A DNA stretch of 36,456 nt, taken from the NCBI GenBank assembly GCA_041487635.1, contig JBGPNR010000001.1, positions 1 through 36,456 of the forward strand, written 5' to 3'. Origin of the DNA: Candidatus Udaeobacter sp. Lineage in GTDB: Bacteria; Verrucomicrobiota; Verrucomicrobiia; Chthoniobacterales; UBA10450. Position numbers and translations under genes: made by a program. Position 1 is the first letter of the stretch. Every line of letters starts with the position of its first letter. Below the pieces are notes generated by a model. The model had not been told where the DNA came from. It made no database searches and saw only the letters and a program-made list of their open reading frames with translations. Positions 13,037 to 36,456 of the stretch are shown piece by piece.

Positions 13037-13462
13037 ATGGCAAAAGAAAAAGTAGCAGAAATAAAACTCCAAATTCCGGCGGGACAAGCTAACCCTGCGC
13101 CGCCGGTAGGTACCGCTCTCGGCCCGCGCGGTGTGAACATCATGGCGTTCTGCAAAGAATTTAACGCTGCCACCCAGAAACAAGCCGGCGACATTCTCCC
13201 GGTCGTGATCACCGTCTTCAAAGACAAATCATTCACGTTCATCACGAAGAGCCCTCCCGCTGCCGTCCTTTTGAAAAAGGCGGCTAACATCGCTGCCGGG
13301 TCCAAAGAGCCGAACAAAACGAAGGTCGGCAAAGTCACGCGCAAACAAGTCATGGACATCGTGAACACCAAGCGCCAAGACCTGAACGCGCGCGACGACG
13401 AAGCCGCCTTCCGCATCATCGCCGGCACCGCCCGCCAAATGGGCCTCGAAATCGCCGATTAA
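13037..13462 (+). CDS. rplK: 50S ribosomal protein L11
   Basis: 141-aa ORF containing [30 protein letters not shown]. It is full length, with a normal C-terminus ([10 protein letters not shown]). Confidence 0.98.
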
Positions 13463-13473
13463 TAGTTTTCAAG

Positions 13474-14312
13474 ATGGTTAGCGCCATCTGTAAGCAGTGC
13501 GGTAATCCAATAGTTCGTCGTGGCACGAGACGACCAATTTTTTGCAGCATTTTCTGTAAGCCGCATGGCAGCGATTACAAAAACCTATCTCTCGACCGGA
13601 GCTACGGCGGTTGTACGTCGATGAAGGATTAGGGACGTATGCGATCGCACGGCTAGTGAATCGCGATCCAAAGCGAGTTTACGACTGGCTAACGGGATAC
13701 CAAATTCCCATTCGACGGCGAACGTGGGATACAACGACTCGAACAAAACCGTACCACGATCGCAATTGGCTCGAGCGCGAATATCTCAAAAGGAAGCGTT
13801 CGGCCTCTGAAATCGCGCGCCAGTTCGGGGTTACAGAGAATACTATTTTGTTTTTCCTAGATGTTCTGAAGATTCCCCGGCGGACAATGAGTGAAACGCG
13901 AGCTGTTAAACATTGGGGATCAAAGGGCGAAGATAACCCAATGTTTGGCCGGACAGGTCAAACGAACCCGCATTGGAAAGGCGGAGTAACGCCTGAGAGG
14001 CAGTCGTTCTATGTTTCGCAGGAATGGAAGCGCGCCTGTGTCGCGGTCTGGCACCGAGACAGAGCGACGTGCAAACGCTGCGGTAAAAAGGCTAAAGATG
14101 GTGCAGCTCTTCACATTCACCATATAGTTTCATTTGCTGTTCGGGCAGAGCGCGACAATCCCACAAATTTAGTTCTGCTCTGCAGTTCATGTCATCACTT
14201 CGTGCACAGCTTAGCAAATGCGAACGGGGAGTTCCTCGCTTCAGAAACGCGAGCGGGATGCTACATGAAGAGGTCGGCGGGCTGGCCAACAAACATAAGC
14301 GAGACAGAATAA
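13474..14312 (+). pseudogene. free-standing HNH homing-type endonuclease, disrupted by a 1-nt frameshift near 13560
   Basis: The frame starting at 13474 gives the zinc-ribbon start MVSAICKQCGN..FCSIFCK. The frame open from 13560 continues AAWQRLQKPISRPELRRLYVDEGL.. into the 13611-14312 ORF. That ORF has two HTH-like modules and the HNH/zinc motif CKRCG..HIHHIV..NPTNLVLLCSSCHHFVH. Restoring one base after AAG (13558-13560) joins the two frames. Confidence 0.75.
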
Positions 14313-14372
14313 GCAATGACTGGTGATCAGCCGTTCGATTTAGACTGATATCAAGCTGAGCGGTTGGAGCAG

Positions 14373-15458
14373 ATGACCACCGCAGCAGAGCAGCGCGCTA
14401 CATCCCACGAGCATAAATCGTTTAATGAGTACCGCCGCCAGCGATATGAGGAGTTGCAAACGTTCGCTGCAAAGCGGCGGAAGATTTATCTCGATACTAA
14501 GTTTTGGATTTGGTTAAGAGAACCACAGGCTTCGCCATATCCGTCTGCAATGGCGACCTTACTGGATAAACTGCGAGATGGTGCTTCCGAAGGAAGCATT
14601 TGTTGCCCCGTTAGTTATCCAATGTTCGTTGAAGCTACGAAAATTTTTCCGTTAAGTCGTCGGTATCAGCACGTTCGGGCGATGGATGAACTTTGCGAGG
14701 GAGTGGCACTACGCAATCCGTTCGATATTTTCGAACTAGAAGTGCTGGAGTTCTTCATCCGCAATTCACCCGCGCTTCGAAATCTGCCGCTACGACCGGA
14801 CAGCGTTTGGTGCCCCGTCGGGCACATGATAGGTGAAAAATATCCATTCCATCCGATGCTTGATGGTCGCGCCCAGGATGCTGCTCACAAATTTATCCTC
14901 GACGCAATGTGGGAGATGACGATGGCTGACTTAGTCATGCAAGATGTCCCGCACCCGCGGATGGATACGGCGCAGAAGGTCAACGCCGAGCGAAGTCTCA
15001 ATCCACGAGGCACGAAGACTTTCGAGCAACTGTTGAAAGAGGAATTGCACGGAGCGCTAGAGGCAATGTTTCCACACATTCGAAATGCCCTAAAAGATCT
15101 TGCGTCGGTATTCGGTATCAGCGCTGAGCCTGCCGATGTGACTCCCGAAGCCTTTCGTCCGGTAATCAACCTAATTCGTGAGGCCGTAACTCAAAATTTG
15201 GACCAAGCCGCGATCCCGTCATTGCGAATTCGCTCTGCATTGCATGCTGCAATACGGTTGGATGATAACCGGCCGTTCCGCGAAAATGATTTTCCCGATC
15301 TCGACCACTCTTCGGTTGCTGTTGCTTATTGCGATGTGTTCCTGACGGAACGTTCGTTTGGTGATTTGCTGGAACAATCATTCGTTAAAAACGTTTCGCG
15401 TTCACAGTGCTTCGTCGCAACCAGCCCGGAGGGCGCGTTAGCTGCACTGGACGCATAG
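14373..15458 (+). CDS. orphan hypothetical protein (possible PIN-like/HEPN-like nuclease motifs)
   Basis: ATG at 14373 preceded by GGAG (14366-14369). The ORF-track TTG start is at 14364. I cannot assign a family by eye. See the findings for the motif-level observations. Confidence 0.6.
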   Translation: MTTAAEQRATSHEHKSFNEYRRQRYEELQTFAAKRRKIYLDTKFWIWLREPQASPYPSAMATLLDKLRDGASEGSICCPVSYPMFVEATKIFPLSRRYQHVRAMDELCEGVALRNPFDIFELEVLEFFIRNSPALRNLPLRPDSVWCPVGHMIGEKYPFHPMLDGRAQDAAHKFILDAMWEMTMADLVMQDVPHPRMDTAQKVNAERSLNPRGTKTFEQLLKEELHGALEAMFPHIRNALKDLASVFGISAEPADVTPEAFRPVINLIREAVTQNLDQAAIPSLRIRSALHAAIRLDDNRPFRENDFPDLDHSSVAVAYCDVFLTERSFGDLLEQSFVKNVSRSQCFVATSPEGALAALDA

Positions 15459-15465
15459 CAAGCAT

Positions 15466-17133
15466 TTACTCGCGCTCGTCGTCGCTGTTTAAACGTTTAA
15501 AGTATTCCCACTGCTGCAGTGAAATCGGGACGTTGCCGTTTTTCCAGACGAAATCGTGGAAGGCGCGGAGGTTGAACTTGTCGCCATGCTGCATGCGCGC
15601 GTCGGCGAGAAATTTCATGATCTGCAACTTCCCGATTTGGTAAGTAATGGCCTGACCAGGACCAGTGGAAAACGCGATCGCTTCTTGCCGCGCGGTCTGT
15701 TCGTCCATCGGGACTTTCTCCTGTAGATAGTTGGCGGCTTGCTCGAGCGTGAATTCGCCGAGCGCGAGTTTCACGTCCACTTCCACGCGCAGCGCGCGGA
15801 GCCGCATGAAATTGTAAATGATCTCGCGCGTGTGCGGGCTGTCATCGAACAAACCGGCCTGCAGCATCATTTCTTCGGCGTAAAAGCCAATCCCTTCGTT
15901 CGCGCCGGAATCGTAGTAATGCCGCCGGATCGGGTCCTCGTGTTTCCACGAAAGACAAAGCTGAAAGTAATGACCGGGAATTCCTTCGTGAACAGTGATC
16001 GGCCGCGGATCCATCGCTGTCGCGCGCCAGAAGTAGCCAAGATTTTCTGACGGCTCAGGCACGTAACGGATGCAATTCTCGTTCAGCCGCGACGGCGACG
16101 TGAAGTCATCGTTCTCAGTAAAGCCGAGAGCGCGCAAATATTCCGGAGTCGGTCGAAGCGTGTAATGCTGGATCCAATCCGGCACAGTTAGAATCCCGCG
16201 CTCTTGGAGAAATTTACGGATCGACAATTCCTTTTCAGCTGCATCGCGAATCCAGTTATCGATGTTGTCGGCAATTTTCAGCGGCGGCACATCTTTGTTC
16301 CGATTTTTCTCGTACGCTTCGAACGCAACCGCGCGATTCCATTCCTGCCGTCCCATTGCCAGCAGTTCCTCCGGCGTGAACGGCATCAGTGCGACATTTC
16401 GCAAAAACCAGACGTACGCGTCGCGACCGAGCGCTGTTTGCTGCGGAAGCTTCGGCAGGTTTTCTTTGAGCTGCTGCTGAAATTTCTCCAGCGCACCGGC
16501 TGCTTGTTCGCAAGCGCTGTTTAGATCTTCCGGGCTCAGAGTCGTGGATTTTATGAGTGCGCTCGACATTTTGCGGAGACGCTCGCGAATGCCGTGGAGG
16601 TTCTGGATCGCGACGCTTGCAAACGGCGCCGGCGGATGCTCGAGATTCTCCGAGCCTTGCTGCAGGATCGACGGAATATTCTCGACTCGCGTGAGAATCT
16701 CGCGACTCCGTGCTTCCCCGTAAGGCGCGGGAATAGTAAGCGCTTCCGCCAGCGCGGTGAGCGTCTGCTCAACGTAAAAATTCGGATCGCGTTTCCAGCG
16801 CGGATTTACGTCGAGTTCCCAATGAACCCGTGACAGCGCAGAGCCGACCAGTTTGTAATCGACTTGCTGCGAAACTGGCCAGCTGCTCGGATCAATGTTC
16901 TTCCACCGCGTTTCGAATTGTTTCAGATCATTTCGCCGTTGATCAATGCTCGCTCGCGACCAATTGCGTATTCCCCCTGGCCGTTCCGATCGATTGACAT
17001 CGTCACCTGTGAACGGCGCGTATTTCGTGCGCCATGTCCAGAAGTCGTCGGCCAGCTTCTCGAGTGATTCAGCGGCGGCAATGTTCGCGACACAAATCGC
17101 AATCAACGCGAGCAAGGCAACGCGCGCTTTCAT
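15466..17133 (-). CDS. secreted DUF885-family protein, second paralog
   Basis: Contains the signature HEGIPGHYFQ. ATG at 17133 gives the signal peptide MKARVALLALIAICVANIAAA and overlaps the upstream stop as ATGA. The ORF-track start at 17265 lies inside the upstream gene. Confidence 0.8.
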   Translation of the reverse strand: MKARVALLALIAICVANIAAAESLEKLADDFWTWRTKYAPFTGDDVNRSERPGGIRNWSRASIDQRRNDLKQFETRWKNIDPSSWPVSQQVDYKLVGSALSRVHWELDVNPRWKRDPNFYVEQTLTALAEALTIPAPYGEARSREILTRVENIPSILQQGSENLEHPPAPFASVAIQNLHGIRERLRKMSSALIKSTTLSPEDLNSACEQAAGALEKFQQQLKENLPKLPQQTALGRDAYVWFLRNVALMPFTPEELLAMGRQEWNRAVAFEAYEKNRNKDVPPLKIADNIDNWIRDAAEKELSIRKFLQERGILTVPDWIQHYTLRPTPEYLRALGFTENDDFTSPSRLNENCIRYVPEPSENLGYFWRATAMDPRPITVHEGIPGHYFQLCLSWKHEDPIRRHYYDSGANEGIGFYAEEMMLQAGLFDDSPHTREIIYNFMRLRALRVEVDVKLALGEFTLEQAANYLQEKVPMDEQTARQEAIAFSTGPGQAITYQIGKLQIMKFLADARMQHGDKFNLRAFHDFVWKNGNVPISLQQWEYFKRLNSDDERE

Positions 17134-18152
17134 TCTTCGCTGTCCGATGTGCGCCGAAGCGTAATGACGGCGGGATTGTTGCCCCGACGGTACATCGAGA
17201 ATCCGTAGCAAATCGCGGCTGTATTTTCGCGAGCGTACCGAATGTGGTTCAACATCTCGTCCCAACGCTCGATGTACCAGCAGTTCGCCGTCTTCTTGCT
17301 CCCGGGAATCGGTACGTAACGATTTTCGGTGAACGTGAGAAACGCGCTCTCATCGGGCAACGGAAACGGCGTTGCCCAATTTGGCGACAGCCGCACGAAG
17401 CGCTTTCGCACGAGATCGAGCGCAAACACTGTTGTTCCATCGCTGCTGTTGAGATGCAGATCAAAGAACGCGAGACGCAGTGCGCCATCGAACAGAAAGC
17501 AGCGTTCCGGGTTCCGGTTCTCATGCAAAATTCCGAACGCTCCTTCAAATCCCGCGAGATCCACAAACGGCGTCTCGGTTCCGGATTTCGGGTCGCGCAA
17601 TAAATAATGTGCGCCGTGTCCAGGCATATCGACCTGATCGGCCTCATCGTTTGGATTTTCACGCAACACGAGCTCAAACGCACCGCCGGGAGATTTGTAG
17701 GTTGGCGTCGGCGTCGGCGATTCGTTAGGGGACTCGCTGGATTCGGGCGAACCACTGGGCGGAGGTGAATTTGCCGCTTCAGGCTCGGCGTTTGTGAAAT
17801 ACGGCGACGTCTTTGCTTCGACGTACCACGACGGCGCGTCCTCAAGCTTTTTCAGTCCTTCTCCATGCGGCTTAATCGTCCAGTACTCGACGATTTTGTG
17901 CGGTTTTTCCCGCGTGAATACAATCGTTTCGCCGCTCGAATCGAAAATCGGTGCGACGTCCTGCCCAGAGTTGTCATTCGTCAACTGGCGCAACAGTTTT
18001 CCATCCTCTCGATACAGATACAGATGGGAGTGACTGATTCCCTCCGCTTGCAGATAACGAATGGCGATTACGATTTCCGAATCGCCCCGCGCGATCGTCA
18101 CAAGGAGCGAAAATACTCCGGCGACAGCCAATATTCGAAGGGTCGAGCGCAT
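17130..18152 (-). CDS. secreted hypothetical protein with PD40/TolB-like segment and Pro/Ser-rich linker
   Basis: 340-aa ORF with the signal peptide MRSTLRILAVAGVFSLLVTIARG, a beta-propeller-blade-like segment (LTNDNSGQDVAPIFDSSGETIVFT) and the linker SPPPSGSPESSESPNESPTPTPT. It is start/stop coupled to both neighbours. Confidence 0.65.
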   Translation of the reverse strand: MRSTLRILAVAGVFSLLVTIARGDSEIVIAIRYLQAEGISHSHLYLYREDGKLLRQLTNDNSGQDVAPIFDSSGETIVFTREKPHKIVEYWTIKPHGEGLKKLEDAPSWYVEAKTSPYFTNAEPEAANSPPPSGSPESSESPNESPTPTPTYKSPGGAFELVLRENPNDEADQVDMPGHGAHYLLRDPKSGTETPFVDLAGFEGAFGILHENRNPERCFLFDGALRLAFFDLHLNSSDGTTVFALDLVRKRFVRLSPNWATPFPLPDESAFLTFTENRYVPIPGSKKTANCWYIERWDEMLNHIRYARENTAAICYGFSMYRRGNNPAVITLRRTSDSEE

Positions 18153-19966
18153 CAGCGAAAAGGGAGTTGAATTGTGCTGGGGTGCGCAGCGTCATGATAA
18201 ATCTGCACGTGACACGTGCGCGCGTCCTTCGCCGTTTCATCGGCCACAACTCCGCCGGAGCAATAATTTTTTTGCCAAGAGATTGAATTGACGGCGGTGA
18301 CAATCAGGCGCAGGCGGCTGCCCTTCATTAGTCGGCGCGCGACGAACAATCCGGGGTTGAAATCGCATTTCAAAATCTCGCCCGGCTTAACGAGCTTGGC
18401 TTCGCGCAGCGACTCGCGGTAGCGCAGCCGGCCCAGGGTGCTCCACAACGCGATGGTTGTTCCGTCCGGCTGGACTTCGTAAAGATCGCACTCAAGATCG
18501 ACATCTGGGGTGTCAATGGAGAGCCACAGGGTGACTGCGGGACAACCAATCAATGGCGTCTCGTTTGGCAAGGGCTCGGTATGATACACTAAGCCATCGC
18601 TGCCGATGCTCAGCGCAAACGTCTGATCGATCGCGGCGGTTTTCTCTTTTGGGTCTACTCCTTCAACAAATTCGCCGCGGTGTGTGTCCAGTGGGTCGTA
18701 TGTGAATTTATCAGTACCGTCGGTCGGCCGCATTTCAGTCAGCGCGCCCGAGCGAAATACTCCGTTCGCATCACTATTCTTCGACGCGAGATAAAATGTC
18801 TTCGGATTGGCGATCAATGCTGCGAAATCGTCGGCGTATTTCCATTCGCCGTTGGCGCCGCTATTGCCGGGCGCTAGCAAATAATATGCGACCTGGCTTC
18901 TGAGGAAGGGCGGCTTCGGGCCGGCCTTCATTGTCCAGTCATACCATTGGCGATGCAGATCGTTAAGATCGACAATCGCACCGGGGCCGAATTTCACCCC
19001 AGCGACATCAGCCGTCGGCGTGCGTGTGCCGGCATGGTCCCACGGGCCAATGACAAGAAAATGTTTCGCCCGGGCTTCGGTTGAGGCGTTCGCCATGTGA
19101 TCACGATAGAACGTGAGCGCGCCCAACTCGTCGCCGTCATATTGGCCGGTAATCGTCAGGATCGGCAGTGTGATTTTTTGAAACTGGTCGCGCGTCGGAA
19201 GCATCGCATCGTAGTACGCATCGACCGTGGGATGTTTGAGGATGCGCTGAAAATTGACGGAGGGATTTCCGACAAAGGAATCGAGCGATTTAAATGGAAG
19301 GTGTTTCTTGTAAGCATCGAGGAATTTTGTACGCCAGAATTTTTGATCAGCGAAAAGGTTTTCCTGTCCGGTGCGGCCACTAGTGAGCGTAAACCACTGC
19401 ATGTCGTAGGTTTCGCCGACATTGTTGTAGGAAGGATAATCCAGCCCCGGGTGAGCAGCTGCCGCCGGAACGATCGTCGCAAGATGCGGCGGGAATTCTT
19501 TCGCCGTCGCCCATTGATCGAACCCCGCGTAAGACCCACCCCACATTGCGATTTTCCCGTCGCAAAACGGCTGTTTTGCTAACCACTCAACGACGTCATG
19601 TCCATCGCGCGGTTCGTTTGCAAATGGTTCAAACTCGCCGCCGGAATTTCCGCGACCTGGCACATCCACGAGCGCGAACGCGTATCCATGCGACGCGAAG
19701 TAGGCGCCGCGGGCGTGGTACGTATCGGAAATGTAAGGAGTGAGCGTGAAGATCACCGGCGTCTTCGGCTGCGATCCGTCCAGCGTTTTCGGTAAATACA
19801 ACGTCGCGTTGAGTTCGACGTTGTCGCGCATTGGAATCTTTACGGCCCATCGCAGATTGTAATCAGCAGGCGGTTGTGCCGGAGATGGCGCTGGAGTTGG
19901 AGATTGTGCAGTGACGTTTGTGGTGAAGGCTGCGCAGAGCAGGCCTGCTAAGATTGACAATTTCAT
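18152..19966 (-). CDS. CocE/NonD family hydrolase (peptidase S15, Xaa-Pro dipeptidyl-peptidase-like), secreted
   Basis: ATG at 19966 gives the signal peptide MKLSILAGLLCAAFTTNVTA (the ORF-track TTG start is at 19975). Motifs include VDVPGRGNSGGEF, the nucleophile elbow WGGSYAG and a C-terminal beta-sandwich region. Confidence 0.85.
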   Translation of the reverse strand: MKLSILAGLLCAAFTTNVTAQSPTPAPSPAQPPADYNLRWAVKIPMRDNVELNATLYLPKTLDGSQPKTPVIFTLTPYISDTYHARGAYFASHGYAFALVDVPGRGNSGGEFEPFANEPRDGHDVVEWLAKQPFCDGKIAMWGGSYAGFDQWATAKEFPPHLATIVPAAAAHPGLDYPSYNNVGETYDMQWFTLTSGRTGQENLFADQKFWRTKFLDAYKKHLPFKSLDSFVGNPSVNFQRILKHPTVDAYYDAMLPTRDQFQKITLPILTITGQYDGDELGALTFYRDHMANASTEARAKHFLVIGPWDHAGTRTPTADVAGVKFGPGAIVDLNDLHRQWYDWTMKAGPKPPFLRSQVAYYLLAPGNSGANGEWKYADDFAALIANPKTFYLASKNSDANGVFRSGALTEMRPTDGTDKFTYDPLDTHRGEFVEGVDPKEKTAAIDQTFALSIGSDGLVYHTEPLPNETPLIGCPAVTLWLSIDTPDVDLECDLYEVQPDGTTIALWSTLGRLRYRESLREAKLVKPGEILKCDFNPGLFVARRLMKGSRLRLIVTAVNSISWQKNYCSGGVVADETAKDARTCHVQIYHDAAHPSTIQLPFR

Positions 19967-20174
19967 CTTGATCAATTCAACCGAAGAAGGCCTGGCGAGA
20001 CAAGAAAGTAGAATTCGACTAACGACTGGCGATGCATCCGCCGTTTACAGCAAATCGAGTTTGCGAGACGATAAGCGCGTGGCTCGCGGTCCTTCCAAGC
20101 ACAAGCAAACTCAGAGCCGCAGCAATTCCGGGCGAGCGACGGCTTTGAACCGAGCGTCGACGCTGAACCGGCAG

Positions 20175-22217
20175 ATGAATGCTGCTCGGACAATTCGTCT
20201 GTCGCAAGCGGAGTTGCTTTGCGCCAGCACCGTATTTCTTGTGGCGCTACTTCTTTATGGCTGGACGCTTGCTTCCACGGTTACTCTCGTCGACAGCGGC
20301 GAATTGATAGTGGCTGCTCAAGGGCTGGGAGTTGCGCATCCGCCGGGCTTCCCTCTATGGGTCATGCTCGCGCATCTCGCATCGCTGGTGCCTTTGGGAA
20401 ACGTTGCGCTTCGCATCAATTTTTCGTCTGCTCTTTTCGCTGCGCTGGCGTCCGCGATGCTCACTCTCATTGTCGCGGACTTGATGATTACAGGTTCATA
20501 TCTCTCCACGTCGAAGCAGAAACGCGCGCAGCGAAGAAGAGAGGATGACGACTCGAGCTTTGGCCGGCTTTTGATCTTCGCGCCTGCGCTTGGCGCGGGC
20601 TTGCTCCTGGCGTTTTCTCGAACGCTTTGGTCGTACGCGACAATCACTGAAGTCTACACTCTCAACGCGCTGCTAATTCTCACGGTTTTTTTTCTGCTGC
20701 TTCGCTGGCGGCGGCGCATCGTCGCGGACCAAGGGAATGCTGGCGCGGCGCTTGCGGCACACGACAGTTGGCTTTATGTCGCCGCTCTCGTGTTTGGGTT
20801 GTCGCTGGGCGTGCATCACGTCACGGTGGGACTGACACTTCCGGCTCTCGCCGTGATCGTTTACAGGACGCAGGGACTGAGATTTTTCACAGGCCGACGA
20901 CTGATATATGCGGCGCTGATTTCGATTGCCGGCCTGGTCGCTGTTTACGCCTATTTGCCGTTTGCAGCGTCCCGGTCACCTGTCATTAACTGGGGCAATC
21001 CGCGTTCACTGCAAGAGATTTGGTGGCATGTAACCGGTCGCCAATACCGAGTGTTTCTCTCCTTCAGTCCATCGACGATGGGAACGCAGTTCCTTGAATT
21101 TTGCCGAATGCTCCTGCGCGAATTCGGCCCTGCCTGGATGCCTTTGCCGCTATTATTGGCTTTTACCGGTTTTGCCAGTGCTTACAAGAGAGACCGCACA
21201 ACCTTTTGGTTTCTCTTATTCATCATCATCGCCAACTTGGCGTACGATCTCAGCTACCAAATTGCGGAAGACAAGGACGCGTACTATTTGCCGACATTCA
21301 TTGCGATGGCGATCGGTGCAGGGTTCGGCATTCGTTGGCTAATCCAAATCACCGTCTCGAAGTCCACGCGATCAAGTGGGTACTGGGCCGCAGTAATTGC
21401 CATTTTACTCACATCAGCAACAGCGTTCGCGGCGAATTGGCCATTCAACAATCGCAGACATTACTTTATTGCCCACGATTATGTTGAAAATCTACTCAGC
21501 ACGATCGAGCCCAATGGCCTCTTGCTCACACAAGACTGGCAGGTCGTGTCGCCCATGTTCTATGCCCAGGAAGTGGAGCGACGCCGGCCCGACGTCAAAG
21601 TTGTCGACATTAATCTGCTGCGTCGTTCGTGGTATTTCGATTATCTAAGACACGCCTATCCTAGCTTGATCGAGCGGTCACGCGAGAAGATTGACACATA
21701 TCTTGAGGACCTCAAAGAATGGGAGCGCGATCCTGGGGCTTTTGCCAGAAACGACTTTCTTACTCAAAAGATCAGCACGGCTTTTTTCGAGATGATCCGA
21801 TCGATTGTAATGAACGAGAACAGGGTCGCACCAGTTTATATTGCACAAGACTTGCTCTTCGCGGACACAACGAACGGTCAAGTGACCAAGTGGATCATGC
21901 AAAATTATCAACTTGTTCCGCAAGGTCTGGTTTTCAACCTCGCGGCTGACCAGAGCTTTCACGATTCGCCAGAGCCGCGCCTCCAGACTCGCGGCCTGGC
22001 TGACGGGACAGTGCGGTTTGACAAGGATGACGTAGTGAACCTCAAGATTTTACCGGCGTACACCAGCATGTTAGTCAATCGTGGACGCTACCTCGCCTTA
22101 TTCAATCAGTACGAGCGCGCCATGGTTGCGTTCAAAGAGGCACTCGCACTCAATCCCAGCCTCACCGCGGCGCGAGAAGGCCTTGCGAAAAGCGCGGCGA
22201 AACTGGGCAAGCCTTAG
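20175..22217 (+). CDS. DUF2723 (TMEM260-like GT-C fold) membrane protein with C-terminal TPR region
   Basis: ATG at 20175. The N-terminal loop motifs VDSGELIVAAQGLGVAHPPGFPLW are characteristic of DUF2723. Many TM helices follow, then a TPR-like tail (NRGRYLALFNQYERAMVAFKEALALNP). The ORF-track 5' extension to 19911 overlaps the divergent gene. Confidence 0.8.
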   Translation: MNAARTIRLSQAELLCASTVFLVALLLYGWTLASTVTLVDSGELIVAAQGLGVAHPPGFPLWVMLAHLASLVPLGNVALRINFSSALFAALASAMLTLIVADLMITGSYLSTSKQKRAQRRREDDDSSFGRLLIFAPALGAGLLLAFSRTLWSYATITEVYTLNALLILTVFFLLLRWRRRIVADQGNAGAALAAHDSWLYVAALVFGLSLGVHHVTVGLTLPALAVIVYRTQGLRFFTGRRLIYAALISIAGLVAVYAYLPFAASRSPVINWGNPRSLQEIWWHVTGRQYRVFLSFSPSTMGTQFLEFCRMLLREFGPAWMPLPLLLAFTGFASAYKRDRTTFWFLLFIIIANLAYDLSYQIAEDKDAYYLPTFIAMAIGAGFGIRWLIQITVSKSTRSSGYWAAVIAILLTSATAFAANWPFNNRRHYFIAHDYVENLLSTIEPNGLLLTQDWQVVSPMFYAQEVERRRPDVKVVDINLLRRSWYFDYLRHAYPSLIERSREKIDTYLEDLKEWERDPGAFARNDFLTQKISTAFFEMIRSIVMNENRVAPVYIAQDLLFADTTNGQVTKWIMQNYQLVPQGLVFNLAADQSFHDSPEPRLQTRGLADGTVRFDKDDVVNLKILPAYTSMLVNRGRYLALFNQYERAMVAFKEALALNPSLTAAREGLAKSAAKLGKP

Positions 22218-22297
22218 TACTGTCTTGAGAATGGGGCGTGCGGCGTTTGCCACATTCCTTTCTTGCCAGCGTACTACATTGCTTCTAAACGAGCGGG

Positions 22298-23665
22298 ATG
22301 AGAATCACGTTTCGTATTCTTCTACTTTTCCTGTTTTTCGACGTGTCGGTGCACGCGGCCGATCAGCCAATCGCGCTTAAAGCTGCGCGAATGTTCGACG
22401 GCAAATCGAACGCCCTCGTGCAAAATGCCGTCGTTATCGTACAGGGCGACAAAATCGTCGATGCGGGAAGCAATTTGCCGATCCCCAGAGGAGCGCAGGT
22501 CATCGACCTTGGCGACGCGACGCTTTCGCCTGGTTTCATGGATGCGCATACGCATCTGACGCTTGATTTCTCCGGAGATTACAATCTGCGCCGGCTAAAA
22601 GAGGTCGACCTCAATGTTTCCGAGCAGGCGATCATTGCCACGGCGCATGCGCGCGCCACTGTCGAAGCGGGGTTCACTACCGTGCGCGATCTTGGAAGCC
22701 GCTTCGTTGGTAGCCGCGAGTTCGTCGATGTCGCGCTACGCAATTCGATCAACAAAGGCGTGATTGTCGGGCCGCGTATGCTGGTCGCGACGAAAGGCAT
22801 CGGCGCCACAGGCGGACATTTCGATCCCACCAGCGGGTTTCGCGATTTTCTTTTTGGACGCGAGCCGGACTACACAGACGGGATTGCGGACGGCGCTGAC
22901 GAAATTCGAAAGGCGGTGCGGTTTGAGGTGAGGAATGGCGCGGATGTGATCAAGGCCGCAGTCTCCGGCGGCGTACTTTCACTCGCCGACGAAGTCGACA
23001 CTCCGCAATTGACGCCGGCTGAAATGGCTGCGCTCGTCGACGAATCGCATCGCTTACGCAAAAAAGTGGCTGTGCATTGTCACGGCGATCAGGCCGCGCA
23101 CGAGGCGATTGAAGCGGGAGTTGATTCGATTGAACACGGTTCTTTTATGAAACCGGAAACGCTGACGATGATGAAAAGAAAGGGAACATTTCTTACGCCC
23201 ACGCTCATGGCGACCGAATGGATCATGAGCAAGATCGACAATTACCCGCCGGCATTACAGGCCAAAGCCAAAGCCGCAGCGGCAGCGCGCTCGGATATGT
23301 TCCGCAATGCAGTGAAGATTGGCGTGAAGATTTCATTTGGAACGGACGCGGCAGTTTTTCCGCACGGGCAAAATGCAAAAGAATTCAAACTAATGGTCGA
23401 TCTCGGAATGACACCAGTCGATGCATTGAGATCCGCGACCGCAAACGACGCCGAGCTTTTGGGAGTCGGTCAAAAGGTCGGCACGCTGGAAAAAGGCAAA
23501 CTGGCCGATGTCATTGCCATGCCGGGCGACCCGACTTCCGACATTACTGCAACCGAGCGCGTTTTGTTCGTGATGAAAGAGGGCAAAATTATCCGCCGGG
23601 GCGCGCCGACAGTGCAAGGAATCTCCGAATCGACAACGCCAGACATCGCAGCGCCGGTCGATTGA
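22298..23665 (+). CDS. secreted amidohydrolase-family metallohydrolase
   Basis: 455-aa ORF with a signal peptide, the HxH metal motif PGFMDAHTHL, plus VAVHCHG, SIEHG and FGTDA motifs of the amidohydrolase superfamily. Confidence 0.85.
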   Translation: MRITFRILLLFLFFDVSVHAADQPIALKAARMFDGKSNALVQNAVVIVQGDKIVDAGSNLPIPRGAQVIDLGDATLSPGFMDAHTHLTLDFSGDYNLRRLKEVDLNVSEQAIIATAHARATVEAGFTTVRDLGSRFVGSREFVDVALRNSINKGVIVGPRMLVATKGIGATGGHFDPTSGFRDFLFGREPDYTDGIADGADEIRKAVRFEVRNGADVIKAAVSGGVLSLADEVDTPQLTPAEMAALVDESHRLRKKVAVHCHGDQAAHEAIEAGVDSIEHGSFMKPETLTMMKRKGTFLTPTLMATEWIMSKIDNYPPALQAKAKAAAAARSDMFRNAVKIGVKISFGTDAAVFPHGQNAKEFKLMVDLGMTPVDALRSATANDAELLGVGQKVGTLEKGKLADVIAMPGDPTSDITATERVLFVMKEGKIIRRGAPTVQGISESTTPDIAAPVD

Positions 23666-23695
23666 TGCGCCCGTGGCATTTATTGGCATAAGGCT

Positions 23696-23723
23696 TTGAC
23701 AAGGCGAAGATAGCCGCTACCTT
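23696..23723 (+). promoter_or_regulatory. candidate sigma-70-type promoter for rplA-rplJ-rplL(-rpoBC)
   Basis: TTGACA at 23696-23701, a 16-nt spacer, then TACCTT at 23718-23723, about 90 nt upstream of the rplA ATG. Pattern match only. Confidence 0.3.
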
Positions 23724-23813
23724 CCGTGCTCCGTTCATGGATTGAGGTGGAGCGGTTTTAAGCAGGAGCCTCGTTGCTGTGCCAAGTGACTGGGCATTTG
23801 AACTGCATAAGAA

Positions 23814-24515
23814 ATGCAAACGAATCGAAGCAAACGTTATCGCGCGGCCGCTGAGCAGGTCGATCGAAGTAAGACTTACAGTCTTCACGATGCCGTCTCG
23901 ACGCTGAAGAAGTTTCCGCCGACAAAGTTTGATCAGACGGTGACGGTTTCATTCCGACTCGGCGTGGATCCCAAGCAATCTGATCAAATGGTGCGCGGGA
24001 CCTGCCCCCTTCCGCATGGGAGTGGAAAACAGGTGCGCGTACTTGTTTTCGCCGAAGGGGAGGCGGCAAAGGCAGCCAAAGAAGCCGGGGCCGAATTTGT
24101 GGGGATGAAAGATCTGATTCAGAAGTGCCAGGAAGGCTTTCAGGATTTTGATGTGGCGGTCGCTACGCCTGCGGCAATGGCTGAAGTGCGTAAGCTGGGC
24201 AAGGTCTTGGGGCCTCGCGGATTAATGCCTAATCCAAGGACCGGGACCGTGACCGATGACACTGCGAAAGCTGTGCAGGAGGTGAAGGCGGGCCGCGTAG
24301 AATTCAAGCTCGACAAGAATGGCAACGTTGCGGTCCCAGTCGGGAAATTTTCCTTTGAAGAAAAAGCGCTCATAGAAAACGGAACCGCAGTGATCGAAGC
24401 CGTTGTGCGGGCTCGTCCGGCGACAGCTAAGGGTCGCTACCTTGAAGGGGTGACAGTCAGTGCGACCATGTCGCCAGGAGTCCGCGTCGATCCGGCACCG
24501 TATTTGAATAGTTAG
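23814..24515 (+). CDS. rplA: 50S ribosomal protein L1
   Basis: 233-aa ORF with a typical L1 N-terminus (KRYRAAAEQVDRSKTYSLHDAV) and the core motifs GTCPLPHG and GPRGLMPNP. Confidence 0.97.
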   Translation: MQTNRSKRYRAAAEQVDRSKTYSLHDAVSTLKKFPPTKFDQTVTVSFRLGVDPKQSDQMVRGTCPLPHGSGKQVRVLVFAEGEAAKAAKEAGAEFVGMKDLIQKCQEGFQDFDVAVATPAAMAEVRKLGKVLGPRGLMPNPRTGTVTDDTAKAVQEVKAGRVEFKLDKNGNVAVPVGKFSFEEKALIENGTAVIEAVVRARPATAKGRYLEGVTVSATMSPGVRVDPAPYLNS

Positions 24516-24540
24516 GTAAAAATAATCACGTCAAAACTAA

Positions 24541-25074
24541 ATGCGATCCGAAAAAGCCAGCATAGTTGCAGATCTGTCCGATAAATTGAAGCGCTCGCCT
24601 TTCGTGCTTGTGACCGATTATCAGCACATGAAGGTCGCTGATTTCAGCGAATTGCGGAACCGACTGGCGCCAACAGGCGCGGAAATGCACGTGGTGAAAA
24701 ACAATTTCCTCAAGCGCGCCATGGCGGATTCCGGTTTGCCCGATGTTAGTGATCAATTAGTAGGCCAGACGGCAGTTGTCACAGGCGAGCAAGATGTGGC
24801 GCCCGTAGCAAAGATTTTCAAGACGTTTGCGACCGAATTTAAGATCGCCGCCCTTAAGATTGGTTTTGTCGATCGCACGGTTCTCTCCACGGCCGAATTG
24901 GAGACATTGGCAGAATTGCCCGCACGCGACGTTTTGCAGGCGCAGTTGCTCGGGTTGCTTCTATCTCCGGCCACGAAATTCGTGCGTATATTGAGCGAGC
25001 CCGGCGCAGCATTGGCGCGGTTATTGAATGCAAAAGCTCAAAAGGAAGGTAAACCAGCGGAGGCAAGCGCATAG
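24541..25074 (+). CDS. rplJ: 50S ribosomal protein L10
   Basis: 177-aa ORF, 25 nt after rplA. L10-like sequence (VTDYQHMKVADFSELRNRL) with a helical C-terminus for L7/L12 binding. Confidence 0.93.
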   Translation: MRSEKASIVADLSDKLKRSPFVLVTDYQHMKVADFSELRNRLAPTGAEMHVVKNNFLKRAMADSGLPDVSDQLVGQTAVVTGEQDVAPVAKIFKTFATEFKIAALKIGFVDRTVLSTAELETLAELPARDVLQAQLLGLLLSPATKFVRILSEPGAALARLLNAKAQKEGKPAEASA

Positions 25075-25150
25075 AAGATTTCGCGCCGCTTTTGGCGGTG
25101 CGAGTAACCAAAACGAAAACTGACCGGGTCGGCGGCTGTCGATCTTAATT

Positions 25151-25168
25151 CTCCGAAGGCTTTCGGAG
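25151..25168 (+). other. 7-bp hairpin in the rplJ-rplL spacer
   Basis: ctccgaa-ggct-ttcggag. A second GU-containing hairpin, gcgccgc-ttttg-gcggtgc, lies about 60 nt upstream. Regulatory role unknown. Confidence 0.3.
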
Positions 25169-25193
25169 GCGGCAATTGGAGGAAAGATACAAC

Positions 25194-25589
25194 ATGGCAG
25201 ATACAGACAAATTGGTGGAGCAACTCAGCAACCTGTCGGTGCTGGAGATTGCTGGATTGGTCAAGCAGCTTGAGGAAAAATGGGGAGTGAGCGCAGCCGC
25301 ACCGGTGGCGATGGCGGCCAATCCCGCTTCAGCGGGCGCACCTGGCGGAACAGCAGCTCCAGCGGCTGAGGAGAAGACCACGTTTGACGTGATCCTCACA
25401 GAAATGGGCGCAAACAAGATCGCTGTGATCAAGGAGGTCCGCGGCGCAGTCCCGGGGCTTGGTTTGGCGGAAGCGAAGGCGCTCGTAGAAGGAGCGCCCA
25501 AAACGATCAAGGAAGGTGTGACGAAGCAGGAGGCAGAGGAGATCAAGAAAAAGATCGAAGCTGCGGGTGCAAAAGTTGAAATCAAATAA
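25194..25589 (+). CDS. rplL: 50S ribosomal protein L7/L12
   Basis: ATG at 25194 with GGAGGA 10 nt upstream. Sequence begins [32 protein letters not shown], followed by an Ala/Pro hinge and the conserved C-terminal domain ending KVEIK. Confidence 0.97.
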
Positions 25590-33808: not shown

Positions 33809-33828
33809 GGGAAAGTTGGTGGTCTTTA

Positions 33829-33882
33829 GCTGAGAGCTGAGAGTGTTGTTGAAAACTCTCAACGCTCAACGTTGAACTCTCA
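33829..33882. repeat. inverted heptamer arrays forming a hairpin just downstream of rpoC
   Basis: GCTGAGA x2 (33829-33842) faces ACTCTCA/ACGCTCA/ACGTTGA/ACTCTCA (33855-33882). The proximal 7 bp pair perfectly. There is no clear T-run. Confidence 0.5.
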
Positions 33883-33945
33883 ATTGTTCGATTTCGACGC
33901 TTTGCTTTTTGAACGCGCGCTGGGTATCCTTCGCCTGTGCTGAAT

Positions 33946-34170
33946 ATGAAACACGTTCGGGACCGTTTGGGTCCGGACTTTCGGCCGTTCACAATTCATC
34001 TGACTGATGACCGAAGCTTCGAAGTGCCGCATCCTGGCTTTATTGCGGTCGGTCGCGGGTATGTCGCAATCGTGGACGAAAAAACGAATCGTCTGCACGA
34101 AATAGACGCGCTTCACATTGTCTCGCTGGACAGGGCTACTCCCGCCGACCAAACTTCGGACGGAAGTTAG
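33946..34170 (+). CDS. small conserved hypothetical protein
   Basis: ATG at 33946 (the ORF-track GTG start is at 33937). From memory, the 74-aa sequence (FRPFTIHLTDDRSFEVPHPGFIAVG) resembles small uncharacterised proteins common in Planctomycetes, Verrucomicrobia and cyanobacteria. Confidence 0.55.
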   Translation: MKHVRDRLGPDFRPFTIHLTDDRSFEVPHPGFIAVGRGYVAIVDEKTNRLHEIDALHIVSLDRATPADQTSDGS

Positions 34171-34174
34171 CCTT

Positions 34175-34720
34175 ATGTCGATTGTCACCAGAACGGGTGA
34201 TGGGGGCGAAACTTCGCTGATGTATGGGCGGCGCTTGTCAAAGGCCGATCCCCGGGTTGAAGCTTACGGATGTGTCGATGAGTTGACCGCCGCGCTCGGT
34301 CTGGCCCGATCCAGTTCGTCCGATAAATTGATTTCGGACGAGATCTTCGCCGCCCAAAAAGATTTGATTGTTGTGATGGGTGAGCTGGCAACGGCGCCAA
34401 GCGATCGGGAACGTTACGTTAAAGATGGCTTTCAACTTACGAGTTCAGCGATGGTGGACCGTATTACAGCGGTCATTTTCGAACTCGAGAAAGACAAAAC
34501 ACTTTATCCGAAAGATTGGGTGATCCCCGGCGCCACCGCACTTTCCGCGGCTCTCGATTTTGCTCGCGCAGTGTGCCGCCGCGCCGAGCGCCACATCGCG
34601 GCATTCAGCGCCGGAGAAAAGGATTTTAACGCCGAGATTTTGCGCTACCTCAATCGCCTTTCCGATCTTTGCTGGATTCTCGCCAGATACGCCGAGAAAG
34701 CCACCATCACTCATCACTGA
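34175..34720 (+). CDS. PduO-type ATP:cob(I)alamin adenosyltransferase
   Basis: ATG at 34175 gives the family-typical start MSIVTRTGDGGETSLMYGRRLSKADPRVEAYGCVDELTAALG. It also has the C-terminal motif RRAER. Confidence 0.88.
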   Translation: MSIVTRTGDGGETSLMYGRRLSKADPRVEAYGCVDELTAALGLARSSSSDKLISDEIFAAQKDLIVVMGELATAPSDRERYVKDGFQLTSSAMVDRITAVIFELEKDKTLYPKDWVIPGATALSAALDFARAVCRRAERHIAAFSAGEKDFNAEILRYLNRLSDLCWILARYAEKATITHH

Positions 34721-34883
34721 CCTGCCCGCCATGCCGTAGTCATACGAAGGCAGGTCACGCCGTAGGTTTAGCGAAGGCGGATCAACTATCCGCCTCCCCA
34801 AAAATCCCTCCCCACAGAGCTAATTTCCGCTATTTTCCGCGCTTCATATCGGAAAAAGTTTCAGCTAGGGTTTTGCCTCACAA

Positions 34884-35288
34884 ATGGCTTCGTTGGTATC
34901 CAAGGGGATAATCGTCTTGAAACCGGAAAACGTTGCTCAGCTCGTCTTCTTCATTCGTGGAGAAAAGGTCCTGCTCGATGCTGATCTCGCGATGCTTTAT
35001 GGCGTTGAGCCGCGCGTCCTGAATCAGGCGGTGGCGCGAAACCGCAAACGTTTCCCAGCGGACTTCATGTTTCAGGTTTCAGCTAGCGAGTACGACGCTT
35101 TGACATCACAGATCGTGATCTCAGACAAGGATGATGCCCGAGGCGCTCCAGCTTTGAGATCACAAATTGTGATCTCAAAGAAAGGCCGCGGCGGACGCCG
35201 CTACCGCCCGTATGCCCTTACCGAGCAAGGCGTCGCCATGCTCTCGAGCGTGGTGCACAAAGTCTCCAATCGATACTGGCCAAGCTGA
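34884..35288 (+). CDS. ORF6N-domain protein, internally duplicated and apparently C-terminally truncated
   Basis: Contains the ORF6N core [63 protein letters not shown]. The segment L(T/R)SQIVIS is present twice, 18 codons apart. From memory, family members normally continue after SSV with more conserved helices; this one ends shortly after. Confidence 0.7.
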
Positions 35289-35311
35289 CCGCACAACTAT
35301 AACATTCATTC

Positions 35312-35518
35312 GTGACGACAACATTGACCATCGATGATGAGCTTTTCGACGCCGCGGCTCGTGCCATGAACTCGGCTGATCCGAACGAAGTAGTTGCGCG
35401 CGCGCTGCGTCTGGCAGCCGAGGACTCAATAGAGCTATACAGCCCCGAGCGTATTGCCGAGTTCGAGCGCGCTGAGAAGGAGCTGGAGGAGTTCTTTCGC
35501 CGCAAAGGACTGCGTTAA
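35312..35518 (+). CDS. VapB-like type II antitoxin (putative)
   Basis: 68-aa ORF with a GTG start. The N-terminus TTTLTIDDELFDAAARAM is typical of VapB/ribbon-helix-helix-type antitoxins. It ends 9 nt before the PIN gene. Confidence 0.6.
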   Translation: MTTTLTIDDELFDAAARAMNSADPNEVVARALRLAAEDSIELYSPERIAEFERAEKELEEFFRRKGLR

Positions 35519-35527
35519 CCCAGCCGA

Positions 35528-35872
35528 ATGCGGATCTTTCTCGATGCAAACATCCTCTTCTCTGCCGCCAATTCCTCCGGCTCAATACGACAGCTTTTGA
35601 ACATCGCTCGCGGAGCGGGACACGAATGTTGGGCCGACGAACACGTCATTCGCGAAGCGCATCGCAATCTCTTTCTCAAGCAACGAGAACGAGTCGCTGA
35701 TTTCGAACGGCTACTCACAGAAGTCCAATGCGCGACGAAACTCCCAAACCTGTCACTTCACGGGCTTGAGGCGCCATTACCAGAAAACGACCGCCGGGTT
35801 CTCGCCGCCGCGATTGCACTTGAATGCGATGCGTTACTTAGCGGCGATCAGACACATTTCGGACCGCTCTAA
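35528..35872 (+). CDS. PIN-domain toxin (VapC-like), truncated by an apparent 1-nt insertion
   Basis: Contains MRIFLDANILF (first acidic residue) and LLSGDQTHFGPL. The stop is at 35870-35872. The +1 frame continues (Y)GKIVNGVKICSPRQLAEDMVK to a stop at 35937-35939, which looks like the missing C-terminus. Confidence 0.7.
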   Translation: MRIFLDANILFSAANSSGSIRQLLNIARGAGHECWADEHVIREAHRNLFLKQRERVADFERLLTEVQCATKLPNLSLHGLEAPLPENDRRVLAAAIALECDALLSGDQTHFGPL

Positions 35873-35940
35873 CGGCAAAATTGTGAACGGCGTAAAGATT
35901 TGTTCGCCCCGCCAGCTTGCCGAGGACATGGTCAAATAGA

Positions 35941-36199
35941 CGATCACCGATCACTGATCACGAATCACTATTCACTTCTGACGCTCCCTTCTCCCTTTCC
36001 CCGTCTCTCAGCTCTCAACTCTCAACGCTCAGCCTTCTTTTCCTGCCACTGATCACCAGTCACTATTCACCATTCGCTTCCTCGCCTCCCTCCGTCTCTC
36101 AACTCCGTAAAAGGGGCGTGGCTCCGACTGAGCTTTACGCTCTCAACCCTCAACTCTTCCCTGTTCACCGATCACTAGTCACTAATCACTTTCTCCAAT
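35941..36199. repeat. G-poor block of interleaved heptamer tandem arrays
   Basis: GATCACT-type x5 (35942-35976), NCTCTCA x4 (36004-36031), CACNNNT x4 (36047-36074), NCTCTCA x3 (36139-36159) and NATCACT x4 (36163-36190). The + strand is strongly depleted in G. Confidence 0.7.
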
Positions 36200-36456
36200 C
36201 TAGCTCCCATCTTGTACCGCTTTCAGCCCGCGCTTGCGCAAGAAATCATGCAGCGGCACGAGGATGATCATCGAGAAATAAACCCAGCCGCTCCATTGGA
36301 TCTGTTCTGTCGGCAAAGTAAGCGCAAAGATCAGCGCCACGATCCCGACGCTCACCGGGACGCTCCAGCCGGTCAGCTCACCGCGCGTCACCAGTCTTTC
36401 CAGTGCATTCAATCGCAACGGGTCACGCAATTGCCAGGCACGCAGATTCAGGAGCA
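36200..36456 (-). CDS. partial hypothetical membrane protein (5' end outside the window)
   Basis: The minus-strand frame stays open to the window edge, upstream of the TTG used by the ORF track. It has hydrophobic segments VSVGIVALIFALTL and WVYFSMIILVPL. No family recognised. Confidence 0.45.
   Translation of the reverse strand, partial: LLNLRAWQLRDPLRLNALERLVTRGELTGWSVPVSVGIVALIFALTLPTEQIQWSGWVYFSMIILVPLHDFLRKRGLKAVQDGS

Follow-up and report, generated by a model that had tools for sequence, protein, structure and literature searches.

The window, a 36,456-nucleotide (nt) stretch of Candidatus Udaeobacter sp. DNA, carries the ribosomal protein genes rplK (L11) and rplA (L1) 10,351 nt apart, with seven open reading frames (ORFs) between them. 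This split is derived from the bacterial rplKAJL gene order. It is probably old and common to the whole Candidatus Udaeobacter-type clade, with Chthoniobacter-like relatives also split, and not the mark of a recent accessory island. Directly before rplA we found a conserved RNA leader that resembles L1-binding sites and, upstream of it, a promoter-like element present in the split lineages. The adjacency of rplK and rplA is among the most conserved gene pairs of bacteria and the basis of the textbook coupled regulation of L11 and L1 in Escherichia coli, and the Udaeobacter-type clade is one of the most abundant groups of soil bacteria.

In the window, rplK (13037-13462, + strand; Pfam Ribosomal_L11_N and Ribosomal_L11) is the final gene of an upstream unit tuf-secE-nusG-rplK. 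The downstream unit rplA-rplJ-rplL (23814-25589, + strand; Pfam) opens with rplA (23814-24515, + strand; Pfam Ribosomal_L1) and is followed by rpoB and rpoC, with spacers of 25 nt between rplA and rplJ and of 101 nt between rplJ and rplL. The gap thus runs from the rplK end at 13462 to the rplA start at 23814 (ORF listing and Pfam), while the two genes are 3 nt apart in E. coli K-12. To its left lie tRNA-Thr, tuf, tRNA-Trp, a SecE-like ORF of 72 amino acids, nusG and rplK, and to its right rplA, rplJ, rplL, rpoB and rpoC. An earlier reading of this DNA, made from the letters alone (the sequence-only reading), had listed the same coordinates, ORFs and canonical flanks, all of them correct by ORF listing, Pfam, NCBIfam and tRNA calls.

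Age and polarity of the split

To collect relatives, the window L1 was used to scan GTDB, each species being represented by a single genome; this gave 80 loci, onto which every window gene was mapped. All 80 come from metagenome-assembled genomes (MAGs) labelled Candidatus Udaeobacter, Chthoniobacterales or Verrucomicrobiota. Their L1 shares 78-96% identity with that of the window, and rplK identity among relatives is 89-97%. In none of the 80 did rplK lie directly upstream of rplA. The gap measured 1,964-9,824 nt in the 27 relatives with both genes visible, and in 20 relatives rplK was not found within 10 kb upstream of rplA.

For the outgroup sample, metagenomes were scanned with a less closely related L1 (P0275, one of the fragmentary L1 representatives at 60-71% identity, which worked as a metagenome probe). 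Here L1 was 49-78% identical to that of the window, and rplK and rplA were adjacent in 58 of the 60 decidable loci, with gaps of -7 to 161 nt and a median of 53. The Udaeobacter-like loci returned by the same scan (L1 at least 85% identical) were again without rplK upstream of rplA. Among the nearest unsplit loci, cluster look-up matched L107 exactly to a Chthoniobacterales MAG; L105 clusters with Verrucomicrobiota and Chthoniobacterales MAGs, and L108 with Verrucomicrobiales. With 58/60 outgroup loci adjacent, Chthoniobacterales- and Verrucomicrobiales-labelled ones among them, the proposal of the sequence-only reading that the separation is secondary is borne out. Two metagenome contigs, L158 and L173 (L1 54-55% identical), showed no rplK within 3.7 kb and 9.2 kb, respectively, upstream of rplA-rplJ-rplL-rpoB; loss of adjacency is rare among the outgroup loci (2/60) yet not unique to the clade.

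A homologue search with the L1 protein returned only relatives 88-95% identical and was uninformative on the depth of the split. The nearest L1 representatives at 50% clustering belong to other phyla (Bifidobacterium, Latescibacteria, Armatimonadetes), and L1 similarity was therefore unusable for a direct walk through the Verrucomicrobiota. No relevant account of an rplK-rplA split in Verrucomicrobia came up in a literature search.

The number of founding events was approached with a neighbour-joining (NJ) tree of L1, L12 and RpoB (1,690 columns, 200 bootstraps), in which the Udaeobacter-type clade was recovered in 200/200 bootstraps. One placement weighs against a single break: the unsplit L107 was sister to the split Chthoniobacter-like L074, L075 and L079 in 186/200 bootstraps, and these three grouped with the Udaeobacter-type clade to the exclusion of L107 in 5/200. 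A tree of L1 alone paired the unsplit L105 with the split L078. Either there were two or more breaks at the junction, or a single break was later undone by a deletion that re-fused the genes.

An alternative to which we assign somewhat less than an even chance differs from our preferred explanation only in the number of founding events. The rplK-leader-rplA junction would have been opened at least twice in Chthoniobacterales, once in the Udaeobacter-type clade and once or more in Chthoniobacter-like lineages, with different cargo and a promoter gained each time. Besides the two tree placements, the interval genes of the Chthoniobacter-like loci speak for it: these deep branches are split, and their genes are unrelated to the Udaeobacter-type ones, with no interval family in common. 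The unrelated L158 and L173 are also non-adjacent. On the other side, the same TTGAC-N16-TAnnnT element stands at about the same distance from the leader in both split groups; this common promoter form is a weak argument for a single origin, although a similar look is to be expected of any new sigma-70 promoter. As to the trees, they are NJ trees on one to three proteins, with L105 placed by L1 alone, and one break plus re-fusion by deletion requires the same number of events.

We think it doubtful that Chthoniobacterales have an integration hotspot where rplK meets the rplA leader, opened again and again, with at least two independent breaks, new cargo and a new promoter at each, and a site-specific phage-type HNH homing endonuclease that cuts just after rplK and drives ongoing turnover. 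Double-strand breaks made by the HNH enzyme, followed by recombinational repair, would import or delete neighbouring genes, and this would explain why the interval gene orf361 is common to the window and L067, which are not sister genomes. If true, such a history would be a bacterial convergence on the archaeal L1-L10-L12 operon, enabled by an L1 operator already beside rplA.

The rplA leader and the promoter-like element

Around the split that we take to be old and clade-wide, the rplA side is conserved: all 81 sequences keep the 150 nt ahead of rplA, irrespective of the gene that lies upstream. This region contains an L1-operator-like leader at 23762-23806 (+ strand), which consists of an outer helix P1 (GCAG/CUGC, 4 base pairs (bp)), a GA bulge, a P2 hairpin of at least 4 bp closed by a G:C pair, and a 3' internal loop of 7 nt (AUUUGAA). 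The leader ends 7 nt before the rplA ATG in the window and 7-9 nt before it in 79/81 loci.

Both helices are supported by covariation. Over 79 sequences, 97.5% of the P1/P2 cells were paired, compared with 22-40% when the partners were slid by 1-3 columns. The P1 pair at columns 62:109 was G:C in 66 sequences, U:A in 13 and unpaired in none. The covariation score was 0.408 against a shuffle mean of 0.131, and 0/500 shuffles reached 0.408. With the outgroups added, 99.4% of cells were paired and compensatory changes were seen in 5/8 pairs (4-5/8 over both sets); the second P1 pair then covaried as well, with A:U in 14, G:C in 8 and no exception, and the slid controls over both sets gave 22-47%.

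A covariance model of the leader, R1, had its best hit in the window at 46.9 bits, the next hit scoring 9.4. Each locus had a single hit, which lay at rplA in every case and in no case upstream of rplK. R1 also recognised the motif inside the short spacers of unsplit loci (45 bits in L107 and 31.5 bits in L108, also L116, L117, L112, L105 and others). The leader thus already stood before rplA when the two genes came apart, and the breakpoint lies upstream of it, after the rplK stop. In this light the statement of the sequence-only reading that the block uncouples L1 synthesis from L11 was overstated: the leader stands directly before rplA in split and unsplit relatives alike, so that control by L1 would have been in place there before the break. 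In L016 (2569-2711) and L041 (2931-3088) the apical loop of P2 holds an extra 70-100 nt, with P1, the bulge and the P2 base intact; the apical part of P2 therefore seems dispensable. These two sequences were left out of the building of R1 and were found by it all the same.

Sites on mRNA that bind L1 are irregular stem-loops which mimic 23S H76-78, with a stem of 6-12 bp interrupted by an internal bulge. They precede rplK in Proteobacteria and rplA in Actinobacteria, Cyanobacteria and Chloroflexi; in Methanococcus the site lies before an rplA-rplJ-rplL operon unlinked to rplK (PMC3616713, PMC10931766). We compared the leader with such sites segment by segment, in the order 5' outer helix, bulge, inner helix, 3' loop and 3' outer helix. 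The window rplA leader reads GCAG, GA, GCCUCG...CUGGGC, AUUUGAA and CUGC, and the clade consensus GCAG, GA, GAGC...GCUC, GUUnGAA and CUGC. The corresponding segments are GGG, GA, GCCUC...GAGGC, GUUAUUA and CCC in the E. coli rplK leader and GGUGG, GA, GGCUU...GAGCC, GACCUUGAAAUA and CCACC in E. coli 23S H76-78; the 23S rRNA of the host itself lies outside the window. With the E. coli rplK leader our leader shares G-GA-G, the G:C closing pair and the 7-nt 3' loop, and with 23S H76-78 the sequence UUGAA. From its position, conservation, covariation and this side-by-side resemblance we infer that the leader is an L1 translational operator.

Several results weigh against this assignment. No Rfam 15 family matched the leader at gathering or permissive thresholds, a search of the window and both leaders returning only tRNAs and noise; L1-binding RNAs are typically not in Rfam (Fu et al. 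2013, PMC3616713). Scanned over the E. coli sequences, R1 missed both the rplK leader and the 23S L1 stalk. Folding of the single sequence gave P2 and not P1, and the energy of the leader was not unusual (z = -1.1). As to the E. coli side of the comparison, the rplK-leader hairpin used is the one that we take to be the mapped operator; PMC2175363 yielded no motif sequence for it. A hand-written structural descriptor, which fits the window leader and the E. coli operator, was dropped as evidence, being no rarer than chance (32 hits where about 41 were expected).

It is rather improbable, in our view, that the leader is instead an attenuator, an RNase site or a target of L10(L12)4 or some other protein, and that it resembles L1 sites by coincidence. 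The lack of an Rfam match, the failure of R1 on the E. coli sites and the poor specificity of the descriptor would all fit such a role. So would the position of rplJ, 25 nt after rplA and without an L10 leader: control of L10/L12 synthesis must sit somewhere, possibly in this leader. Yet the motif is placed exactly like the L1 sites of other phyla, which directly precede rplA and extend into the initiation region (PMC3616713). It also has the GGAG bulge, closing pair and 3' loop of the E. coli rplK leader and the UUGAA of 23S H76-78, and it is conserved with compensatory changes from Verrucomicrobiales-like to Udaeobacter lineages. As a putative L1 operator, the conserved leader is a candidate addition to the collections of ribosomal-protein leaders for Verrucomicrobiota.

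The only Shine-Dalgarno-like sequence near rplA is AGGAG (23764-23768). It lies some 45 nt ahead of the ATG and belongs to the conserved bulge and P2 of the leader; the 7 nt that adjoin the ATG (AUAAGAA, 23807-23813) contain none. The short rplA-rplJ spacing (24516-24540; rplJ-rplL spacer at 25075-25175) recurs in relatives and in unsplit outgroups. L10_leader (Rfam RF00557) was not found anywhere in the window, and L10(L12)4 autoregulation, if any occurs here, therefore cannot use the usual rplJ leader.

Upstream of the leader, a promoter-like element occupies 23696-23723 (+ strand), with TTGACA at 23696-23701, a 16-nt spacer and TACCTT at 23718-23723. The pattern TTGAC[AT]-N15-18-TAnnnT was present in 75/80 split-clade loci, 72 of them with a 16-nt spacer, regardless of the upstream gene, and in 0/58 unsplit rplK-rplA spacers. 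It was also absent within 200 nt upstream of rplA, rplK 3' end included, in the five outgroups checked. A point against promoter function is the weak -10 hexamer, in which TACCTT fits only 3/6 consensus positions; for this reason a generic promoter/terminator scan, which gave no more sites than shuffles, did not list the element. A new promoter for the rplA unit had been predicted in the sequence-only reading, and the conserved element, absent in unsplit relatives, agrees with it. We regard rplA-rplJ-rplL(-rpoBC) as a likely autonomous, L1-regulated transcription unit behind a putative promoter of the sigma-70 type.

Between the -10 hexamer and the L1-like motif the window has a further 5' leader hairpin (GCUCC/GGAGC, 23728-23753, + strand) followed by GGUUUU (23754-23759), variable in sequence and conserved in position. 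An equivalent hairpin directly follows rplK in the unsplit L105, L107 and L126, where it resembles an intrinsic terminator (L105: AACGGCCGAGACGGCCGTTTT). In the window it could be an attenuator or a 5' stabiliser.

Filling of the interval

Interval ORFs were called de novo in the relatives and clustered, and the resulting maps were ordered on a tree of L1, L10 and L12. The architectures form a nested series: amidohydrolase and DUF885 first, then c2 or S15/orf340, then the GT-C gene in the sub-clade of the window, and HNH and orf361 at the tip. The interval is a mosaic accreted gene by gene over the history of the clade, not one cassette, and the amidohydrolase and DUF885 genes are its oldest layers.

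Most widespread is the gene of a secreted amidohydrolase (22298-23665, + strand; Caulobacter-type Xaa-Pro dipeptidase-like; Pfam Amidohydro_1), found in 59 loci on the + strand and adjoining rplA; its score on NCBIfam NF051886 was 405 bits, under the 500-bit cut-off of that model. The smallest interval, 1,964 nt in L050, has this gene as its sole large ORF (rplK > amidohydrolase > rplA), and in the likewise minimal interval of L031 it is one of two. The DUF885 secreted protein (15466-17133, - strand; Pfam DUF885, E = 1.6e-59; 555-amino-acid gene call taken from L081) belongs to a family present in 36 loci, mostly on the - strand and convergent with rplK, which it adjoins in most relatives. It is the last gene of a minus-strand operon S15-orf340-DUF885. 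The first gene of this operon encodes a secreted S15/CocE-NonD hydrolase (18152-19975, - strand; X-Pro dipeptidyl-peptidase-like; Pfam Peptidase_S15 and PepX_C; NCBIfam CocE_NonD, 255 bits), present in 23 loci on the - strand. The middle gene, orf340 (17130-18152, - strand), encodes a secreted orphan of 340 amino acids and was seen in 11 loci, every time between S15 and DUF885. It had no significant match in Pfam, NCBIfam, PADLOC or PHROGs, the best being a TolB repeat at 16 bits against a cut-off of 343. The three ORFs overlap by 1-4 nt, and each begins, by eye, with a signal-peptide-like sequence.

A later layer is the gene of a TMEM260-like (ex-DUF2723) GT-C glycosyltransferase with a C-terminal TPR (19911-22217, + strand; Pfam PF11028, E = 1.5e-39), whose actual start is probably downstream of 19911. 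It occurs in 23 loci, on the + strand, clustered in the derived clade that is the sub-clade of the window. The GT-C protein is only 62-73% identical where L1 and RpoB are 96-97% and neighbouring block genes 84-86% identical; the gene is either fast-evolving or exchanged between lineages. L019, L025 and L030 carry the exact five-gene core of the window (DUF885<, orf340<, S15<, GT-C>, amidohydrolase>) without HNH and orf361. Two further families lie in the intervals of relatives: c2, an orphan of about 278 amino acids found in 26 loci on the - strand immediately before rplA, and c6, a D-Ala-D-Ala ligase found in 7 loci on the - strand. The c6 product is a full-length D-Ala-D-Ala ligase, a cell-wall housekeeping enzyme (L035:2324-3421 and six other loci), and the content of the interval is thus not purely accessory. 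Most interval products look secreted by eye, and three look peptidase-like.

The newest layers stand at the left edge. The HNH homing-endonuclease pseudogene (13475-14312, + strand) comprises a zinc-ribbon N-terminus from the ATG at 13475 and a body ORF with helix-turn-helix (HTH) and HNH modules at 13611-14312 (Pfam HNH, E = 1e-10; HTH_23 and HTH_28). The frameshift noticed in the sequence-only reading is real, N-terminus and body being in different frames; relative to the intact allele P0121, of 279 amino acids and including the zinc ribbon, the window has a 1-nt deletion (AAGGCC to AAGCC) at 13560/13561. P0121, 99% identical, lies 11 nt after the rplK stop in metagenome contig L084, and L088 has a 71%-identical allele in this position, with an orphan ORF of 251 amino acids other than orf361 behind it. 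The distance from the rplK stop to the gene is 11-12 nt in the window, L081-L084 and L088, representing three diverged lineages. Nearly the full length of the intact protein is covered by its match to phage family phrog_8446 (E = 3e-33), and members 57-60% identical are found in phage-like gene arrays or directly after hisF. The identical site in three diverged lineages and the phage relatives uphold the homing-type assignment made before. The further suggestion that HNH nucleated the block fails, as the gene is the newest layer, missing from all 80 species representatives, among them the at least 25 with a visible rplK 3' flank, and lies outside the five-gene core. The layer spans about 890 bp (13463-14350) and is confined to the lineage of the window in this comparison. 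By its sequence characters, HNH is a site-specific phage-type homing endonuclease gene, the last arrival and not the founder.

The second-newest layer, orf361 (14373-15458, + strand), encodes an orphan of 361 amino acids that had no match in sequence searches of Pfam, NCBIfam, PADLOC, PHROGs and PDB. Among the 80 relatives it is found only in L067 (86% nt identity), about 50 nt after rplK and without HNH, which makes HNH a separate insertion; it is identical in L081-L083. Decay is reciprocal: L084 (1463-2148) has HNH intact and orf361 frameshifted, and the window (13475-15458) the reverse. The stops of orf361 (+) and DUF885 (-) converge 7 nt apart (15459-15465) with no terminator between them, so that transcripts reading through from rplK-HNH-orf361 would enter the DUF885 operon in antisense. 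Insertion-free relatives often carry a hairpin or terminator at the rplK-DUF885 position, L060 being an example. Only the left-most 2 kb or so (HNH and orf361, 13463-15465) is recent and mobile.

In its likeness to free-standing phage HNH homing genes, the element combines an HNH nuclease with zinc-ribbon and HTH modules, the phrog_8446 match, relatives in phage-like neighbourhoods, diverged alleles (99%, 71%) at an identical site, a presence/absence polymorphism and decay of the window copy. Unlike them, its predicted target is the end of a chromosomal ribosomal-protein gene in a free-living soil bacterium and not a phage gene. It makes up only about 0.9 kb of the 10.35-kb block.

The composition check suggested in the sequence-only reading showed a flat GC content of 0.51-0.57 over block and flanks. 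Tetranucleotide distances at 17-24 kb (z = -1.2 to +0.6) were indistinguishable from those of the remaining window; the DUF885 region was mildly deviant (z = 2-2.8), and the HNH and orf361 segment had the lowest tetranucleotide correlation of the window (r = 0.75). The identity of the amidohydrolase to that of the window followed rpoB identity (Spearman rho = 0.79, n = 36) as tightly as did rplJ, rplL and tuf, which indicates vertical co-inheritance. To be set against this, the identities of DUF885, S15 and GT-C were weakly or not correlated with rpoB over their narrower taxon range. We conclude that the block genes are native.

These data bear on the view that the whole 10.35-kb block is one recent accessory island, possibly inserted by way of the HNH homing endonuclease at its left edge, as the sequence-only reading had it; we consider this very improbable. 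The homing-type gene is indeed at the left edge, HNH and orf361 are compositionally the most deviant segment, and the block genes, which have no link to translation, are spread over both strands. But all 80 relatives are split, three of them carry the five-gene core without HNH, HNH is missing from the whole set of 80, amidohydrolase divergence keeps pace with that of rpoB, and 17-24 kb has the composition of the flanks. No integrase, transposase or recombinase was found among the block proteins with Pfam and NCBIfam, repeats across the block boundaries were at chance level with no flanking direct repeats, and the window offered no tRNA attachment site for the block; the earlier reading had likewise seen no integrase, transposase or direct repeats. 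It had also named what would point to an old lineage-wide rearrangement, namely an arrangement common to all relatives and a flank-like composition, and this is essentially what we see. The island view is refuted for the block as a whole and holds only for 13463-15465. Like genomic islands, the block is a multi-gene insert unrelated to translation that breaks a conserved operon and varies in content between relatives. It differs from them in its missing mobility genes, attachment site and repeats, in its native composition, and in that its oldest genes are inherited vertically with the flanks and only 13463-15465 is patchy.

A chimeric contig that joins an rplK-bearing to an rplA-bearing region can be dismissed, because the left junction rplK-HNH-orf361-DUF885 recurs at 99.9-100% nt identity, frameshifted stretch included, in L081, L082 and L083 (contigs of separate sample origin, from a JGI metagenome and two SRA runs, brought up by an exact-protein lookup of orf361) and the gene order recurs in independent MAGs of several studies, long-read chromosome-scale contigs among them. 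The right junction from amidohydrolase to rplA was seen again in about 30 independent MAGs. The window arrangement is not a misassembly, and in Udaeobacter MAGs annotators and synteny-based tools should not flag the rplK-rplA interval as an island or misassembly. Farther downstream, rpoC is followed by genes for a cobalamin adenosyltransferase, an ORF6N-domain protein and a PIN-domain protein (33809-36456); in E. coli and many other bacteria rpsL-rpsG-fusA lie near rpoC.

Proposed history and known systems

We propose the following course of events. The ancestor had the structured leader in a 50-90-nt rplK-rplA spacer directly before rplA, as living unsplit Chthoniobacterales and Verrucomicrobiales do. 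As a putative mimic of the 23S L1 stalk, the leader may bind free L1 and so prevent translation from starting at the rplA ATG, which lies 7-9 nt beyond it. DNA then entered after the rplK stop and upstream of the leader. The TTGACA-N16-TAnnnT element ahead of the leader, seen in split lineages only, would have made rplA-rplJ-rplL(-rpoBC) independent. With independent units on both sides, the gap tolerated gain and loss of genes, taking up amidohydrolase and DUF885, then S15/orf340 or c2, then GT-C. The newest layers are orf361 and, after it, the phage-type HNH gene at its specific site 11-12 nt after the rplK stop; there it may use read-through transcription from rplK, and the window copy has already decayed by its 1-nt deletion. 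This course suggests that the split was workable thanks to an L1 operator already beside rplA together with a newly gained promoter. It would be a concrete and testable example of the splitting of an essential ribosomal operon, in which the L1 control site already lay by rplA and only a promoter had to be added. The value of the finding is moderate. Its components, an L1 operator, a promoter and an HNH homing gene, are all of known kinds; what is new is a bacterial clade with an archaeal-like L1-L10-L12 layout.

The E. coli L11 operon (rplKA) has the same leader architecture, placed just upstream of the regulated start codon and resembling 23S H76-78. There, the L1 site lies before rplK, and rplA, 3 nt after rplK, is regulated by translational coupling (PMC3616713). 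In the window, by contrast, the motif lies before rplA, rplK is 10.35 kb away without a copy of it, and rplA has its own putative promoter. Closer are the L1-binding RNAs of Actinobacteria, Cyanobacteria and Chloroflexi (Fu et al. 2013, PMC3616713), where, as here, the putative operator directly precedes rplA, and our unsplit relatives carry it in the rplK-rplA spacer. In those phyla, unlike in the window, rplK and rplA are adjacent and co-transcribed, and Verrucomicrobiota are not among the phyla named in the text of PMC3616713 for rplA-proximal sites.

Most similar in layout is the archaeal L1-L10-L12 operon, exemplified by the MvaL1 operon of Methanococcus vannielii, with rplK apart, rplA-rplJ-rplL contiguous and an L1 site, or here an L1-like one, directly before rplA (PMC3616713). 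The layout of contiguous rplA-rplJ-rplL with non-adjacent rplK was also present in 80/80 relatives. Unlike the archaeal operon, it belongs to a bacterium and is secondarily derived, rplK is still found 2-10 kb upstream on the same strand, and rpoB and rpoC follow rplL.

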